Shown: in pieces, positions 2,224-62,353 of the stretch | Layout: every line of letters starts with the position of its first letter | How positions within the stretch are numbered: position 1 is the first letter of the stretch | From: a virus | IMG/VR virus record: IMGVR_UViG_3300048914_000195 | Direction: 5' to 3' (one strand) | Length of the DNA stretch: 64,000 nt | The notes under the pieces: model-generated | What the model was told of the DNA's origin: nothing | The model's database searches: none | What the model saw: the letters and a program-made list of their open reading frames with translations, nothing else | Made by a program: the position numbers and the translations under genes

Positions 2224-2267
2224 TAAAAATCTGCTATCCCCAGTCGCCAAACTTAGATAGCAGATTA
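2224..2267 (-). terminator. intrinsic terminator (leftward)
   Basis: Minus sense: AATCTGCTATC (2266-2256), a 17-nt loop, GATAGCAGATT (2238-2228), running into a T-run (TTTTT). There is no T-run in the plus sense. Confidence 0.6.
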
Positions 2268-2698
2268 AAAGCTTTGATTCGGTAGCTTATGGATAAAAGC
2301 CATGCACTGTCGACGCATTTTATGTGTGCTTTGAATTCCACCCGAATCATTTTTTTTGATTTATCGAACTTGAGAGGCTACCGTTGCAAGTGTAAACCCT
2401 CTCACGTATCAATTATATGCGGGGCAGGACTGTTTACCTGAATGAGATACTTGGCTACGTAGGCTACACATGGTCCCGCAGTCTCGGTGTGCATTGCCCT
2501 GGAAACCATATCGTCTGCATACGACACGTATCACTTATCCTTGTAGCGTCTAATTCCGCCACCCGCAATGTGTTGCGGTACTTAGGGAATGGAAATTTCG
2601 ACACCCCTTTCCCACAATATCTTGATTCAAAGAACTTATTTAGTTTAAAGCTGGCACACGAATAGTCTCTGCCGGGATAATGCATTTATTATTCATTG
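2224..2698 (-). ncRNA. candidate structured non-coding RNA (~470 nt), family unknown
   Basis: Bracketed by the full-consensus promoter (2705-2735) and the terminator (2224-2267). Several helices are visible: 2563-2568/2573-2578, 2519-2523/2527-2531, 2371-2377/2398-2404 and 2276-2282/2342-2348. Helix 2472-2477/2501-2507 closes only with G-U pairs in the minus sense. The only ORFs are two mutually antisense ones of 73-82 aa. Confidence 0.4.
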
Positions 2699-2704
2699 TC
2701 AGTA

Positions 2705-2735
2705 CAAATATACTGATTATTTTCAATTACGCAAA
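2705..2735 (-). promoter_or_regulatory. Bacteroidota-type promoter, leftward (TTTG-N19-TATATTTG)
   Basis: On the minus strand the -7 box TATATTTG is at 2712-2705 and the -33 box TTTG at 2735-2732, with a 19-nt spacer. This is a full match to the TTTG / TAnnTTTG consensus described for Bacteroides and Flavobacterium housekeeping-sigma promoters. Confidence 0.6.
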
Positions 2736-2795: not shown

Positions 2796-5135
2796 ATGCA
2801 GGATAATAGACTGTTGGAGTTTCATCAAGGGACAAATAAACAGAAGGCGGATTATAAATTCGGCCTGATGGTAGCACAGTCTATTGCAAATACAGTTGCC
2901 ATAGGGTATAATAGTTACTTCTACAGGAGGAATGAAATCATCCGTCGTTCCCGAAACATTGCCATAGGAGATCAAGATATGACAAAATATCTTGACATGA
3001 TTAACATCAATGGCAAGGAGGCATATGTTAACCTTGATATGACACCTCCAAGAATAGCCCCTAAGTTTTTGGAGATTATCACCATGCGATTTATGGAACG
3101 TCCTGAATCCGTGACTGTGTCTGCCATTGATCCACAATCAAGAAAAAGGAAAGAGCGGGAAAAGGACCAGGCAGAGTATCGGATGGATAATAAGGGTTTC
3201 ATTGATACACTTACACAAGATACTGGTATACCACTTGAAGATCCCTCAGCATTCACCCCAGAGGACAAAGACGATCTGGACTTTTATTTTGGATATGAAT
3301 ACCAATTACCGGAAGAAATTAAATTTGAGAAGGGAATTCAGTACGTACTGACTGATAATGACTGGGATTCAGTCTGCAAAAGGAAGATACTGGAGGACTT
3401 GGAGGAGTGTGGATTTTCTGCAATCAGAACGTATGTTGACCCTAATGGTAAAATCAGACCTACTCCATGTGTTCCTGAAAACTCTTTTTACTCTTACAGC
3501 AAATACAACGATTTCAGGGATATAGCATGGTGTGGTGAATTTGTGAAAATAAAGGTGCCTGAGTTCCGTGCGAGGTTCGGTAATAAATTCTCAGGAGAAA
3601 AGGAAATATTTGAATGTATAAAACAGGCCGCAGTTGGGTGTTCCGGGTACAGTGAAACCCTGGCGTGGAATGACTTGTATTCATATTCATACTTCAGACC
3701 ATATGATGACTGGGAGGTTGAGGTGATGGAGTTTGAGTTTAAAACTGTTGATAACGATATATATACTGCTAAGAAAAATAAATATGGTAATCTCATCGCT
3801 GTAGACAAAAGGGATAAGATGCCGCAACGCCTCGGAGATAATAAAGAAGTTATCATCAAGCAGGTATACAATATTTACAAGGGGTTTTACCTTAAAAAAA
3901 TAGACAAGTTGCTTTGCTGGGAACTGGCAAAGAATATGATTCGCCCTCACAGCAACTTAGCGGACGTGTATTTCAGCTATTCTTTCTACATGCTGAAAAA
4001 CCGCGAGATGATGCCAACGCCGTTGCCTATTCGCATGGAGTTGTATATTAAGGCAATGACATTGAGCTTATTGAAGATACAGCAGTTAAAAGCAAAATTA
4101 CGTCCAGCAGGGATTGCAGTTGACATCAATGGCCTAAATGATCTTGATCTTGGGTTGGGCCGAAAGATACATGCACTGGAGTTACAGCAGATATATGACC
4201 AGACTGGTACATATTACTACCGGTCTATCAAGGAAGATGGGGAGACAAGGCAGCAAATGCCAATACAAGAACTTGCAAATGCAGGATCTGTCCCTCAGTT
4301 CCAAGCTCTGATTGAGGAATATAATTTCCAATTACAGTGCATGCGAGCAGATATTGGGTCTAACGAATATGTAGAGGGCCAGTCGGTAAATCCTAAGTTG
4401 GGGATGGGTGTACAGCAAACACAAATCCAATCATCCAACCGAACTACAGAATTTATATATGAGGCGTACCTGGCTCTTATGAAAGGCTGTACCCGGAATA
4501 TCGCCATATTGCTATGGGATAATATTATTGCTGGAGGCGCTCAGTATAGAGAATATGTGGGAGACGAACCGTTGGATAAAACTGTATTTGATGCAACAAT
4601 AGAGGTTCAGCCAGATGCCACTGAAAGGCAGTTAATGCGTGAAATGGTACAGACGGCATTAACGGCCGGGTTAATTGACTTCCAGGATGCATTCAAAATC
4701 AACAATATCAAGAATATCAAGTTGCAGGGCCTATATCTGGCACGCGCACAAAAACGTAGGCAGAAGGAGCAGATAGAAACCAACCAAGCTAATATTCAGG
4801 CGACGGCTCAGGCCCAACAGCAGTCAGCTGCACAGACGTCTCAGCTGAAGCAACAGGAGCTACAGCTTACTGGACAGATTAATGCTGCCACTGAACAGAT
4901 GAAAATAAAAGGACAGTCTGATATTCAACTTCAAAAACTTGTTAATGATTTATTACTTGAGTCATTTAAGAGTGGGAAGCCACTTTCTCCGCAGATGCAA
5001 GACATTGTGGATGGATATTTCGAGTCGAAATCTGATCAGGAAGAGAATCAAGAAGCCGCCACGGAGGAAATGATGGCCCAGGAGCGACAGCAGGCACAGA
5101 TGCAGGATCCACAACAATTACAACAAGCCGTTTAG
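2796..5135 (+). CDS. putative portal protein
   Basis: 779-aa ORF, first gene of the rightward module. It lies immediately upstream of the scaffold-like and capsid-like genes (podovirus order), and its size fits a portal. The C-terminal tail is Gln/Glu-rich. The call rests on position and size only. Confidence 0.5.
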   Translation: MQDNRLLEFHQGTNKQKADYKFGLMVAQSIANTVAIGYNSYFYRRNEIIRRSRNIAIGDQDMTKYLDMININGKEAYVNLDMTPPRIAPKFLEIITMRFMERPESVTVSAIDPQSRKRKEREKDQAEYRMDNKGFIDTLTQDTGIPLEDPSAFTPEDKDDLDFYFGYEYQLPEEIKFEKGIQYVLTDNDWDSVCKRKILEDLEECGFSAIRTYVDPNGKIRPTPCVPENSFYSYSKYNDFRDIAWCGEFVKIKVPEFRARFGNKFSGEKEIFECIKQAAVGCSGYSETLAWNDLYSYSYFRPYDDWEVEVMEFEFKTVDNDIYTAKKNKYGNLIAVDKRDKMPQRLGDNKEVIIKQVYNIYKGFYLKKIDKLLCWELAKNMIRPHSNLADVYFSYSFYMLKNREMMPTPLPIRMELYIKAMTLSLLKIQQLKAKLRPAGIAVDINGLNDLDLGLGRKIHALELQQIYDQTGTYYYRSIKEDGETRQQMPIQELANAGSVPQFQALIEEYNFQLQCMRADIGSNEYVEGQSVNPKLGMGVQQTQIQSSNRTTEFIYEAYLALMKGCTRNIAILLWDNIIAGGAQYREYVGDEPLDKTVFDATIEVQPDATERQLMREMVQTALTAGLIDFQDAFKINNIKNIKLQGLYLARAQKRRQKEQIETNQANIQATAQAQQQSAAQTSQLKQQELQLTGQINAATEQMKIKGQSDIQLQKLVNDLLLESFKSGKPLSPQMQDIVDGYFESKSDQEENQEAATEEMMAQERQQAQMQDPQQLQQAV

Positions 5136-59798: not shown

Positions 59799-60340
59799 AT
59801 AAAGCTGGGAGTTAGGTGATATTTTTTTGGAGAAAGTATTTTATATACCTCTTCGAAAACGCGAGGGAGTAGCCCTTTATTAATTTGATCCTCCGCCGCT
59901 GTGTTTTTAAGGACATCGGATAGTGGATTAGTGGCAGTGTTGGAACCGCCAATATGATATATTTTTGCTGTTGATTGTAGTGTATAGAAGGTTTCGAACA
60001 GTTCAGATAATTTCCAGCCTTCCGACTCAGTAAAGGTGGTTTTAGTAAGAAGAGGGCAATTAAAGATGTTGTGTACATACTCTTTGTGTCCATCAATTTT
60101 GCCAATAAAAGAGGTGTCAATATGTCGATGAGAATCAATGCCTTTCGACTTACTCGGCAATCTGTTGTTGTAATATGTTTCAACATATCCAAATCCCCAG
60201 TACCAGTCACAATCCCAACTGGCTTCTTCAAGCCAATAATTAGTTCCGTATTCGTCTTGTCCTAACAGATACACTTCTTTACCAAATGCGTGGTCTATTT
60301 GATTGGCGAGTATTTTTTTTGAAGTTGAAGTGGTTGTCAT
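59795..60340 (-). CDS. hypothetical protein (181 aa)
   Basis: Track ORF with a Trp-rich motif WDCDWYWGFGY. Function unknown. Confidence 0.55.
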   Translation of the reverse strand: MTTTSTSKKILANQIDHAFGKEVYLLGQDEYGTNYWLEEASWDCDWYWGFGYVETYYNNRLPSKSKGIDSHRHIDTSFIGKIDGHKEYVHNIFNCPLLTKTTFTESEGWKLSELFETFYTLQSTAKIYHIGGSNTATNPLSDVLKNTAAEDQINKGLLPRVFEEVYKILSPKKYHLTPSFI

Positions 60341-62322: not shown

Positions 62323-62353
62323 CAAAGATACAACCGTTTTTCTTTTACGCAAA
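62323..62353 (-). promoter_or_regulatory. Bacteroidota-type promoter, leftward (TTTG-N19-TATCTTTG), candidate early promoter
   Basis: On the minus strand the -7 box TATCTTTG is at 62330-62323 and the -33 box TTTG at 62353-62350, with a 19-nt spacer. The architecture is the same as the promoter at 2705-2735. Confidence 0.55.

Follow-up and report, generated by a model that had tools for sequence, protein, structure and literature searches.

Positions 2224-2735 of the phage sequence IMGVR_UViG_3300048914_000195 raise a simple question: what kind of transcript lies between a promoter and a terminator-like hairpin on the same strand? A first-pass annotation of the window (by which we mean the whole 64,000-nt stretch analyzed) had proposed a single discrete transcript of about 470 nt, non-coding and highly structured like GOLLD and ROOL, running from the promoter at 2735-2705 to the hairpin at 2266-2228. 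We now regard this reading as very unlikely. The stretch is a mosaic, made of a leader hairpin, a 45-nt remnant copy, a tRNA-shaped RNA of 152 nt, a spacer hairpin, an inverted tRNA-Asp-like gene, and a last hairpin. We think it probable that these elements form the promoter-proximal part of a leftward, probably polycistronic cluster of tRNA and tRNA-like genes in a Bacteroidota phage of about 73 kb, and not a single large RNA.

Promoter, leader and layout of the cluster

The elements of the cluster are listed here with the evidence used to define them.

2705-2735, minus: predicted Bacteroidota-type promoter, TTTG-19 nt-TATATTTG (motif match, conservation in relatives)
2643-2675, minus: leader hairpin CCGGCA...UGCCAG (2675-2651) and UUUAAAC (2649-2643) (relatives, folding)
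2618-2635, minus: conserved leader of 18 nt, GUUCUUUGAAUCAAGAUA (alignment with L008, L026, and L030)
2573-2617, minus: putative remnant mini-copy of the tRNA-like RNA, 45 nt (insertion relative to L008, L026, and L030; folding)
2416-2568, minus: tRNA-shaped RNA of 152 nt (2568-2417) lacking an anticodon arm, plus discriminator A2416 (homologue in L008, family, folding)
2568-2562 and 2423-2417, minus: its acceptor 5' strand and 3' strand
2561-2560, minus: its U8 and G9
2559-2546, minus: its D arm, GCG-GAAUUAGA-CGC
2545-2442, minus: its central domain
2441-2424, minus: its T arm, UCAGG-UAAACAGU-CCUGC
2371-2404, minus: spacer hairpin GAGAGG...CCUCUC (complementarity, folding)
2276-2349, plus: tRNA-Asp(GUC)-like gene (Rfam tRNA model)
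2223-2266, minus: stable, terminator-like hairpin (2266-2228) and U5 (2227-2223) (folding)
1846-1960, minus: continuation of the cluster downstream, with a hairpin (1960-1941) and UUUUAAAC preceding tRNA-Tyr (folding)
1846-1930, minus: tRNA-Tyr (tRNA search)
1709-1782, minus: tRNA-Trp (tRNA search)

The promoter boxes are read on the minus strand, with TTTG at 2735-2732 and, after 19 nt of spacer, TATATTTG at 2712-2705. They match the Bacteroidota housekeeping-sigma consensus (-33 TTTG and -7 TAnnTTTG, about 19 nt apart), and on this basis the element is a predicted promoter. The pattern TTTG-N18-20-TAnnTTTG occurs six times in the window against 1.14 expected, a count that none of 100 shuffles reached. 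The earlier statement that only one other place matches fully is true for a spacer of exactly 19 nt (2705-2735 and 62323-62353); in the remaining four, one of them at 1209-1238 on the minus strand, the spacer is 18 or 20 nt long. The promoter is conserved in five related phages (L004, L008, L009, L010, and L011), which share with the window an invariant TTTGCG and an invariant TTT in the -7 box. In all five, the promoter runs straight into minus-strand tRNA genes, which differ from phage to phage. The tRNA neighborhood claimed for the window is also present, since tRNA-Tyr and tRNA-Trp are both on the minus strand. We found no consensus promoter on this strand from 2705 to 1242, and these two tRNAs have none of their own. 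We propose that the promoter at 2735-2705 drives the leftward tRNA/tRNA-like cluster.

The leader hairpin has an identical sequence in L010 and L011, L004 has another stem in the same place, and in these three phages a tRNA follows directly. In the window the hairpin is weak (-6.3 kcal/mol, z = -0.4, one C.A mismatch). The 18-nt leader lies immediately 5' of the tRNA-like RNA in relatives. Next to it in the window is the 45-nt element, with a 5' strand UUGUGGG, a T-arm-like hairpin, and a 3' strand ACCGCAA; its closing stem reaches -13.1 kcal/mol (z = -1.4), and the alignment shows that about 49 nt here (roughly 2562-2610) are missing from L008, L026, and L030. We infer from these sequences that it is a remnant mini-copy of the tRNA-like RNA.

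Taken in order, the transcript would start at the conserved housekeeping-type promoter and run leftward through the short leader hairpin, the decayed mini-copy, and the full 152-nt tRNA-shaped RNA. It would then cross a spacer including the antisense of the inverted tRNA-Asp-like gene, pass the strong hairpin with its U-tract, and finally reach tRNA-Tyr and then tRNA-Trp.

One large RNA or separable modules

Several observations behind the large-RNA proposal hold. The promoter and the hairpin with its U5 exist in the proper orientation, no credible ORF lies in the region, and all the helices listed for it are complementary in the sequence. The 474-nt region also folds better in the minus sense (z = -2.4) than in the plus sense (z = -1.5). 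However, this is only weakly above chance, and z = -2.4 is a weak value for an ornate RNA of 474 nt. The stretch is non-coding and includes structured RNA, the 152-nt element, that folds better in the minus sense, but it is not one discrete unit.

The search with the Rfam covariance models argues against a GOLLD/ROOL-type RNA. At the gathering score, Rfam 15 gave no match for the 470-nt unit, GOLLD and ROOL included, over the whole window, and with E <= 10 the intervals 800-2900 and 2405-2700 returned only tRNA and noise. Weak hits to freshwater-2, sau-63, and snoZ163 were likewise put down to noise. A match to PAGEV (12.3 bits, E = 0.6, for a gathering score of 61) was attributed to chance because this is a motif of Vibrionales plasmid origins and its stems are broken here.

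The comparison with relatives goes in the same direction. Phages with 74-81% portal identity conserve only 2645-2790 and one sub-element, the 152-nt element, in L008. This element aside, the interval 1944-2645 has no counterpart in L004 or L008-L011, and the proposed unit is absent from them; no homologue of the spacer hairpin was found in the compared relatives either. The loci with portal identity of at most 65% (L021-L024) are uninformative, with a gene of about 680 aa directly upstream of the portal gene and no divergent intergenic region. A metagenome scan with the portal alignment retrieved nine loci, none above 62% identity.

The helices themselves belong to separable modules. The pairing 2371-2377/2398-2404 is the spacer hairpin, and 2563-2568/2573-2578 joins two acceptor strands of tandem tRNA-like copies. 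The supposed long-range helix, 2276-2282/2342-2348, proves to be an acceptor stem, and the tRNA-like gene that it closes lies on the opposite, plus strand. This gene scores 39.1 bits with the Rfam tRNA model (gathering score 29). Its 7-bp acceptor stem and its D stem pair perfectly, the bases U8, A14, G18G19, and U33 are in place, and its anticodon loop CUGUCGA reads GUC (Asp); a run of eight T follows the gene. Its T arm is irregular, with a bulged U and a C53.U61 mismatch. ARAGORN missed the gene in default mode and found it only in mitochondrial mode.

Two mutually antisense ORFs cover part of the region, one of 73 aa on the minus strand (2464-2685) and one of 82 aa on the plus strand (2417-2665). 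They had been judged not to look like proteins, and we agree: both are orphans, neither with a meaningful Pfam or PHROG match. A small protein made from the 73-aa ORF and expressed from the promoter would be in line with the calls of gene callers in Logan contigs and with the position of the ATG, about 15 nt past the predicted transcription start. Yet we consider it extremely improbable. Among 5.8 billion proteins the ORF matches itself alone; Pfam returned nothing for it, and the single PHROG hit (E = 0.18) lacks significance. The ORF also crosses three elements, namely the leader hairpin, the remnant copy, and the tRNA-like RNA over two thirds of its length, and the corresponding position in L008, L010, and L011 has no called ORF.

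The left end of the proposed large RNA is the hairpin at 2228-2266, which has about 12 bp, an inner 4-bp helix, and a tetraloop (-18.5 kcal/mol, z = -4.8, none of 200 shuffles as good). A simple terminator scan missed it because the scan only allows loops of 3-8 nt. UUUUU follows it on the minus strand only, and the element at 2266-2223 has the sequence makeup of an intrinsic terminator, i.e., a stable G+C-containing stem with an adjoining U-tract. This part of the terminator claim stands. A clean transcript end is nevertheless unlikely, because analogous elements, with a hairpin and UUU(U)AAA, lie directly upstream of tRNA genes in the clade, and in L004 a hairpin with UUUUAAAAU stands between the sole promoter and tRNA-Tyr. 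Such hairpin and U-tract elements between promoter and tRNA in L004, L010, and L011, together with the lack of a consensus promoter for the downstream tRNAs of the window, would argue for read-through. The hairpin elements are probably punctuation or partial terminators and not full stops. As a counterpoint, the hairpin at 2266-2228 is strong enough for an efficient terminator, and if it acts as one the downstream tRNAs would need an unrecognised promoter.

A large phage family that includes the 152-nt RNA

The core of the region is a tRNA frame around a central domain that takes the place of the anticodon arm. In the window, the acceptor UUGCGGG/CCCGCAU forms six of seven pairs (U1.U72 is mismatched), for seven of seven in L008. 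The T stem, preceded by U2442, forms four of five, with a U.C mismatch in the first pair. With these two stem mismatches, the window copy is slightly defective. The central domain, of about 105 nt, folds as one long irregular hairpin. L008 is the sole clade relative with the element at this locus (4714-4581, minus); the ends of the two copies are nearly identical (17/19 and 22/23 positions), while the center has diverged and still folds. In both phages the minus-sense fold is better than the plus-sense one, with -48.5 vs. -37.3 kcal/mol in the window and -45.6 vs. -34.9 kcal/mol in L008. When the 64 kb were searched for sequences to which the apical loop of the window copy could bind as an antisense RNA, only the loop itself was returned.

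This RNA belongs to a large family of phage RNAs that is not in Rfam. The 17-nt D-arm motif GTGGCGGAATNAGACGC is present at no fewer than 120 IMG/VR loci, i.e., at least 120. Among the matches listed, the 7-bp acceptor stem and the adjoining 5-bp T stem are both perfect in 86 of 113 distinct copies, compared with 49 of 2260 (2.2%) in the shuffled control, and the strict members have 66 different acceptor strands. The acceptor, D, and T stems all covary: both sides changed in 12 of 15 pairs, including all five of the T stem (score 0.77 vs. 0.18; 0/500 shuffles reach 0.77), with the caveat that the strict set was selected for perfect pairing, which inflates the paired percentage in this analysis. 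The unbiased controls are the shuffles of the 113 copies and the counts of D-arm patterns. For the latter, the compensated D-stem variant GTGGTGGAATNAGACAC (GUG/CAC) was found at 25 loci, nine of them with a perfect frame, and the uncompensated variant GTGGCGGAATNAGACAC (GCG/CAC) at four, none with the frame. Judging from these comparisons, strong structural selection acts on the whole family.

Besides the acceptor stem, the family frame has U8, G9, and a D arm of the form G(C/U)G-GAAUNAGA-C(G/A)C, whose stem is compensated. It also has U48 and a covarying T stem of 5 bp, which closes a loop of 6-11 nt and abuts the 3' acceptor strand. A U immediately precedes the T stem in 85 of 87 copies. 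The anticodon arm is replaced by a free-form central domain of 20-193 nt, and none of the 86 members has an anticodon arm at the canonical place. We considered that the anticodon stem could be split by an intron, and rejected this since such stems are not enriched (15% vs. 14% in shuffles). The discriminator base and CCA are not conserved, and the copies are never called by ARAGORN or Rfam.

In GTDB genomes, a scan with the 3' motif gave seven hits, all in G+C-rich DNA of unrelated bacteria and without the 5' motif; the family has no host counterpart in this collection. In GenBank phages, BLAST with the D-arm motif matched Microviridae, where the sequence encodes the C-terminus ...MRGGIRL* of a small basic protein, and Pseudomonas phage Dolphis, where the AGACGC half is absent. 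Among cultivable phages, phAPEC8 of E. coli carries between tRNA-Asn and tRNA-Thr a tRNA-like gene that is not annotated and shares the 8-nt T loop. Generic descriptor scans for further tRNA-like frames in 800-2800 were left unused, with 11-262 chance hits per 2 kb. A literature search of incomplete coverage found no earlier description of the family.

Among 42 downstream ORFs only two are mutually related, and these come from near-identical loci; there is no conserved downstream gene, and we therefore rejected cis-regulation of one gene family. The association with tRNA clusters is not general, because for 65 of the 86 strict members the surrounding DNA that was retrieved contains no tRNA. 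As the RNA mimics the acceptor/T-arm frame, host RNase P and 3' tRNA-processing enzymes probably excise it from the precursor. It would then persist as a stable small RNA in which the tRNA frame serves as a scaffold for the variable insert.

One may ask if the locus is instead evolutionary debris: genes for tRNAs and tRNA-like RNAs would be decaying here within a hypervariable cluster, and the stretch, transcribed or not, would have no function of its own in this phage. The lack of conservation among close relatives, the remnant mini-copy, the two stem mismatches of the tRNA-like copy, the leader hairpin degraded relative to L010 and L011, and the inversion of the tRNA-Asp-like gene, with its defective T arm, all fit this view. 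We nonetheless judge it unlikely, given the near-identity of the ends of the 152-nt element to L008 around a diverged center that still folds, the strong structural selection on the family, and the perfect acceptor and D stems and tertiary-core bases kept by the tRNA-Asp-like gene.

The stems could also matter as DNA, if the leader carried a mobile cassette, a recombination product, or a site of recombination or replication. A 12-nt direct repeat, ATAATGCATTTA, brackets the segment (2208-2219 and 2677-2688), one cassette is inverted, and the content of the cluster is different in every relative, which suggests cassette turnover. However, a 12-nt repeat is near chance in 2 kb of AT-rich DNA (about 0.1 by our estimate), and L010 and L011 share the leader hairpin that lies just within the left repeat, which makes this hairpin ancestral. 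G-U pairs, which would be mismatches on the other strand, are tolerated in the family's stems. Finally, all 12 copies lying within 300 nt of a tRNA are on the strand of that tRNA, which points to RNA. A DNA-level feature is thus highly improbable, and we retain a tRNA/tRNA-like cluster as the preferred reading.

Likeness to known RNAs and meaning of the family

The closest concept for the 152-nt RNA is RNAC and RNAD of phage T4. These small stable RNAs (species 1 and 2) measure 139 and 119 nt, and their genes sit within the tRNA cluster of the phage in the orientation of the tRNAs. The element at 2568-2417 similarly has tRNA-like ends and lies upstream of tRNA-Tyr and tRNA-Trp on the same (minus) strand. 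The 3' end of T4 RNAC consists of a T arm like that of a tRNA, CCGGG-UUCGAAU-CCCGG, and then a strand resembling that of an acceptor. The function of RNAC and RNAD is still not known (PMC3014915, PMC9697503). The likeness has limits: the D-arm motif GUGGCGGAAUNAGACGC is absent from rnaC and rnaD, as far as their sequence read by eye tells, the T loop of RNAC has the canonical 7 nt, and the present family, unlike the T4 RNAs, is often away from any tRNA gene.

Among tRNAs, the frame resembles class II tRNA-Leu. In both, the acceptor leads into U8/G9 and a D stem of 3 bp (GCG/CGC or GUG/CAC), whose loop starts with GAAU and finishes with AGA; U48 and a 5-bp T stem are likewise shared. The D arm of Escherichia coli tRNA-Leu is UGGCGGAAUUGGUAGACGC, for UGGCGGAAUUAGACGC in the tRNA-like family. 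In contrast to tRNA-Leu, the family lacks G18G19 and any anticodon arm, has T loops of 6-11 and not 7 nt, shows no conservation of the discriminator, and is invisible to the Rfam tRNA model and ARAGORN. In E. coli, LeuRS charges its tRNA without reading the anticodon. A tRNA frame (acceptor, T arm, and reduced D region) around a long non-tRNA insert is also the plan of tmRNA. Here, however, the 3-70 pair is G-C and not G.U, the copies examined (window and L027) have no tag reading frame, and the inserts, of 20-193 nt, have no conserved pseudoknots. The ARAGORN tmRNA search found nothing in the window or in the 86 member loci. GOLLD and ROOL are likewise phage-borne, non-coding, and near tRNA genes, but the window region is far smaller, modular, not conserved as a unit, and without Rfam match at the thresholds tried.

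In engineered tRNA scaffolds and in mascRNA-type signals, an acceptor/T-arm frame can recruit RNase P and 3' processing and protect an insert. These systems are artificial or eukaryotic, and by analogy with them similar processing may apply to the phage family. We put forward, tentatively, that the family consists of undescribed phage RNAs derived from tRNA-Leu that are natural "tRNA scaffolds": the frame would recruit host processing and stabilize the RNA, and the hypervariable insert would do the work, e.g., as a regulator or an anti-defence decoy.

For the window, these results replace a speculative "large ornate RNA" by a concrete map of the leader of a phage tRNA cluster. The family found through it is well supported and goes unreported by standard tRNA finders and Rfam 15. 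Its members keep the core of tRNA-Leu, but the anticodon arm and the elbow contacts made by G18G19 are gone, and their inserts are very different in size and fold. "Extra" stable RNAs of phage tRNA clusters have been known since T4, with a role unknown for 50 years, and a covarying family provides comparative material on them. It also makes predictions that can be tested, on cleavage by RNase P, on whether the RNAs carry CCA and are aminoacylated, and on what the insert does. If the scaffold reading is true, there would be hundreds of unannotated genes of this kind in uncultivated phages, and the long-unexplained RNAC and RNAD of T4 would gain a rationale.

Phage context and the leftward promoter

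The window derives from a Bacteroidota phage of ~73 kb and is also present, with identical sequence, in two Logan contigs (73,335 bp). The product of the portal gene (2796-5135, plus strand) has ~28% identity to portal proteins of Cellulophaga and Flavobacterium podophages, and a non-coding gap of ~2 kb (820-2795) separates this gene from a leftward block of small genes. In this gap, the first-pass annotation had proposed a candidate large ncRNA, likened to GOLLD and ROOL, running leftward from a promoter to a terminator across 2224-2735. The promoter is indeed present on the minus strand (TTTG at 2735-2732, 19 nt, TATATTTG at 2712-2705), and with a spacer of exactly 19 nt the motif matches the window only at 2705-2735 and 62323-62353. 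When spacers of 18-20 nt are allowed there are six matches against 1.14 expected, and none of 100 shuffles reaches six.

We compared the portal neighbourhood with those of related phages, namely loci L008-L011 (portal identity 74-81%, judged from the portal-search hits P0003-P0006) and L004 (55%). Besides the tRNA-Tyr block and a 40-nt match in L008, the only sequence common to the window and these relatives is 2645-2790, a block with both divergent promoters and the ~50 nt with which the leftward transcript starts. Across the alignment, the -33 box is invariant at TTTGCG and the -7 box at TTT. The leftward promoter leads in every relative almost directly into minus-strand tRNA genes, and these are different in each phage. 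Hence, this promoter is part of a leftward tRNA cluster that is hypervariable.

Several observations concern the cluster and its surroundings. In L021-L024 (portal identity <= 65%), a ~680-aa, terminase-sized gene lies directly upstream of the portal gene; in the window clade (window, L004, L008-L011), the leftward small-gene block and the tRNA cluster are inserted between the position of that gene and the portal. ARAGORN tRNAs of L008 (4738-4810, minus) and L010 (4780-4851, minus) have two-base 'anticodons', i.e., a 6-nt anticodon loop; even so, the Rfam tRNA model gives the L008 gene 53.6 bits. In L009, a 116-nt tRNA-like gene (4793-4908, minus) on which ARAGORN is silent begins at the leftward promoter itself. 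Its acceptor stem is perfect (GGAAUGU/ACAUUCC) and its T arm canonical, and 3' of this gene lies the apparent 3' half of another tRNA. The tRNA-Trp of the window, called by ARAGORN, is not reported by the Rfam tRNA model even at E <= 10. Scanned as a whole in gathering mode, the window yields no tRNA in Rfam, although two exceed the gathering score in scans of regions: detection of atypical phage tRNAs such as these is sensitive to filter settings. Finally, a second full-consensus Bacteroidota promoter (1238-1209, minus) has downstream of it a hairpin, GCUCAGG..CCUGGGC, with a U6 tract (~1165-1125, minus), forming a unit of ~75-80 nt. The block around it (1104-1350) is conserved in L004, L010, and L011, and the unit (1125-1238, minus) is a candidate small RNA, better conserved than the 2224-2735 region.

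A mosaic of tRNA-type modules

The conserved promoter is followed by a mosaic of tRNA-type modules, listed here with the two tRNA genes of the non-coding gap.

Features of 2224-2735 and of the adjoining tRNA genes, in minus-strand order (5' to 3')
2735-2705, minus: promoter
2675-2643, minus: leader hairpin and UUUAAAC
2635-2618, minus: 18-nt leader GUUCUUUGAAUCAAGAUA, which adjoins the 5' end of the tRNA-like RNA in loci L008, L026, and L030
2617-2573, minus: window-specific stretch of ~49 nt that starts with UUGUGGG, holds a T-arm-like hairpin and ends with ACCGCAA; read, from its sequence, as a putative remnant of a tandem copy of the tRNA-like RNA
2568-2417, minus: complete 152-nt tRNA-shaped RNA, discriminator A at 2416
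2404-2371, minus: hairpin within a spacer
2276-2349: antisense of a plus-strand tRNA-like gene
2266-2228, minus: hairpin with U-tract
1846-1930, minus: tRNA-Tyr (ARAGORN)
1709-1782, minus: tRNA-Trp (ARAGORN)

The sequence features described in the first pass were confirmed; their interpretation as one large ornate ncRNA was not. The window has no match in Rfam 15 at gathering thresholds (at E <= 10, over 800-2900, tRNA and noise only), the ~700 nt at 1944-2645 are peculiar to this phage in the comparison with its relatives, and the region is made of distinct modules. The fold of the whole 474 nt is only slightly more stable than that of shuffled sequences (z = -2.4 for the minus strand, -1.5 for the plus). 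Both antisense ORFs exist; searches of Pfam and PHROG gave no meaningful match for either, and the sole match of the 73-aa ORF among 5.8 billion proteins is itself. All listed helices are complementary in sequence, and two of them acquire another meaning. Helix 2563-2568/2573-2578 joins the 3' acceptor-like strand of the putative remnant to the 5' acceptor strand of the 152-nt RNA that follows, and the supposed long-range helix is the acceptor stem of the plus-strand tRNA-like gene. This gene (2276-2349) scores 39.1 bits with the Rfam tRNA model (gathering score 29), against 34.5 bits for the phage's own tRNA-Tyr. It has a perfect 7-bp acceptor stem, a perfect D stem, U8, A14, G18G19, U33, the anticodon GUC, and an irregular T stem. 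ARAGORN finds it in mitochondrial mode only. The predicted gene faces away from the remaining genes of the cluster, and no consensus promoter was found for it on the plus strand.

The proposed terminator (2266-2228) is a stable hairpin (-18.5 kcal/mol, z = -4.8) followed by UUUUU on the minus strand. Together with UUUUUAAAAC, it has the same form as hairpins that precede tRNA genes. Between promoter and first tRNA, L010, L011, and L004 each have a hairpin with UUU(U)AAA(U/C) after it; the window homologue of this element (2675-2643) is degraded by one mismatch. The window's tRNA-Tyr is likewise preceded by a hairpin (1960-1941) and UUUUAAAC, and L008 has one immediately before its first tRNA. 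Since in L004 such a hairpin alone separates the single promoter from tRNA-Tyr, and since the minus strand of the window has no consensus promoter between 2705 and 1242, we infer that these elements punctuate the transcript or terminate it only partially.

Immediately before the first tRNA, L004 (5800-5830) and L008 (4815-4835) have hairpins with a common loop, UAUCUAAA, on different stems (CCCCG/CGGGG and CCGG/CCGG, respectively), which suggests a conserved loop-specific signal. Between two hairpin and U-tract elements of the window lie 245 nt (1976-2220, minus) with no ORF, homologue in the relatives or Rfam match, within which CGGGTGGTGGGTAAGGTGCC (2066-2047) is similar to the 5' motif of the tRNA-like RNAs described below. 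An exact direct repeat of 12 nt, ATAATGCATTTA, at 2208-2219 and 2677-2688 brackets the supposed transcript almost exactly; it could be due to chance or be the trace of a duplication or insertion.

A family of tRNA-like RNAs lacking the anticodon arm

The mosaic contains one well-supported functional RNA, the 152-nt element, which belongs to a large family of tRNA-like RNAs without an anticodon arm. The window element and its L008 copy (4714-4581, minus) have near-identical ends, 5' GCGGGUGG(C/U)GGAAU(U/G)AGAC and 3' CAGGUAA(A/C)CAGUCCUGCCCCGCA, and centres diverged in sequence and length. Both are predicted to fold as a tRNA-like junction, far better in the minus sense (-48.5 vs -37.3 kcal/mol for the window, -45.6 vs -34.9 for L008). 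The 5' part of the element, UGGCGGAAUUAGACGC, is the D arm of a class II tRNA-Leu minus three bases, by comparison with the D arm of E. coli tRNA-Leu, UGGCGGAAUUGGUAGACGC.

We searched IMG/VR with the D-arm motif alone. The motif GTGGCGGAATNAGACGC occurs at at least 120 loci. A doubly changed, still paired D-stem variant, GTGGTGGAATNAGACAC, occurs at 25 loci, nine of which have a perfect frame (7-bp acceptor stem and adjoining 5-bp T stem); the singly changed, mispaired variant GTGGCGGAATNAGACAC, which gives the empirical background, occurs at four, none with the frame. These counts therefore show both enrichment and covariation in the D stem. Scoring the acceptor helix formed by the 7 nt 5' of the motif and seeking the T stem 40-420 nt downstream, we found a perfect acceptor stem abutting a perfect T stem in 86 of 113 distinct copies, vs 49 of 2260 shuffled controls. 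The family uses 66 different acceptor strands. In a trimmed alignment, both sides change at 12 of 15 pairs, and the covariation score is 0.77 (0.18 in shuffles, 0.07-0.12 for slid partners); as this alignment was chosen for pairing, it is the shuffled controls and the D-stem variant counts that carry the argument. Hence, this tRNA-frame RNA is under strong structural selection across many phages.

Of 87 copies, 85 have a U directly 5' of the T stem, and the T loops (6-11 nt) are of few types: UAUCGAAU and UAACCAAU; NUGAAAUUN; UAUGAAACAAU; GGUGAAAGUCC. Total length ranges from 68 to 241 nt (median 123), central domains have unrelated folds, the discriminator base varies, and few copies encode CCA. 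An anticodon arm (5-bp stem, 7-nt loop, U33, R37) is found in the canonical place in none of 86 copies and anywhere in five. A split anticodon stem, which would mean an intron, is as frequent in copies (15%) as in shuffles (14%), and this explanation was rejected. In the window copy, U1.U72 and the first pair of the T stem (U.C) are mismatched, and this copy may be slightly impaired.

ARAGORN calls no family copy as tRNA or tmRNA. Rfam searches of 14 member loci recognised none of them, and a canonical member was likewise not recognised at E <= 10. A tRNA lies within 300 nt of 12 copies, in each case on the strand of the copy, and the L073 copy sits inside a tRNA array, 6-10 nt from its neighbours; most copies have no nearby tRNA in the DNA fetched. 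No conserved gene was found downstream. The D-arm motif is essentially absent from cultured-phage records; its matches in Microviridae are a coding coincidence. Rfam 15 and the searchable literature yielded no earlier description of the family, which does not prove that none exists.

E. coli phage phAPEC8 has, between tRNA-Asn and tRNA-Thr, an unannotated ~80-nt tRNA-like gene (L158 1450-1530; NC_020079, ~60,020-60,100). Its T arm, GCAGG-UAUCGAAU-CCUGC, has the 8-nt T loop seen in the family; its D region is different. This T-arm sequence occurs in 76 Escherichia phage records, mostly phAPEC8-like, and is unannotated in all the matches listed. The 13-mer CCCCAGTCGCCAA is common to the phAPEC8 gene and the loop of the window hairpin 2266-2228 (at 2238-2250, plus). 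Another kind of expanded tRNA-like gene is found in the phage contig L138 (5939-6056, plus), which scores 34 bits with the Rfam tRNA model and has a 52-nt insertion in place of the anticodon loop.

Putative processing and the closest known RNAs

One precursor would extend from the promoter through the hairpins to tRNA-Tyr and tRNA-Trp. Because the tRNA-shaped RNA presents an acceptor and T-arm frame, RNase P and 3' processing enzymes are predicted to cut it out, and the frame may stabilise the variable insert. The closest concept is that of T4 RNAC (139 nt) and RNAD (119 nt), stable RNAs of still unknown function from the tRNA cluster of T4 (PMC3014915; PMC9697503). They have in common with the window element their location in a tRNA cluster, and RNAC has a tRNA-like 3' part as in the family, but they lack its D-arm motif. 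tRNA-Leu is the source of the frame, yet the family fails the tests for a tRNA. The tRNA-like domain of tmRNA resembles it in logic only: unlike tmRNA, the family has no G3.U70, ARAGORN reports no tmRNA, and the copies read show no tag frame.

The 2224-2735 region is thus the promoter-proximal part, mosaic in composition, of a hypervariable tRNA cluster of the phage, and its interest lies less in the locus itself than in the family of tRNA-like RNAs to which it led.
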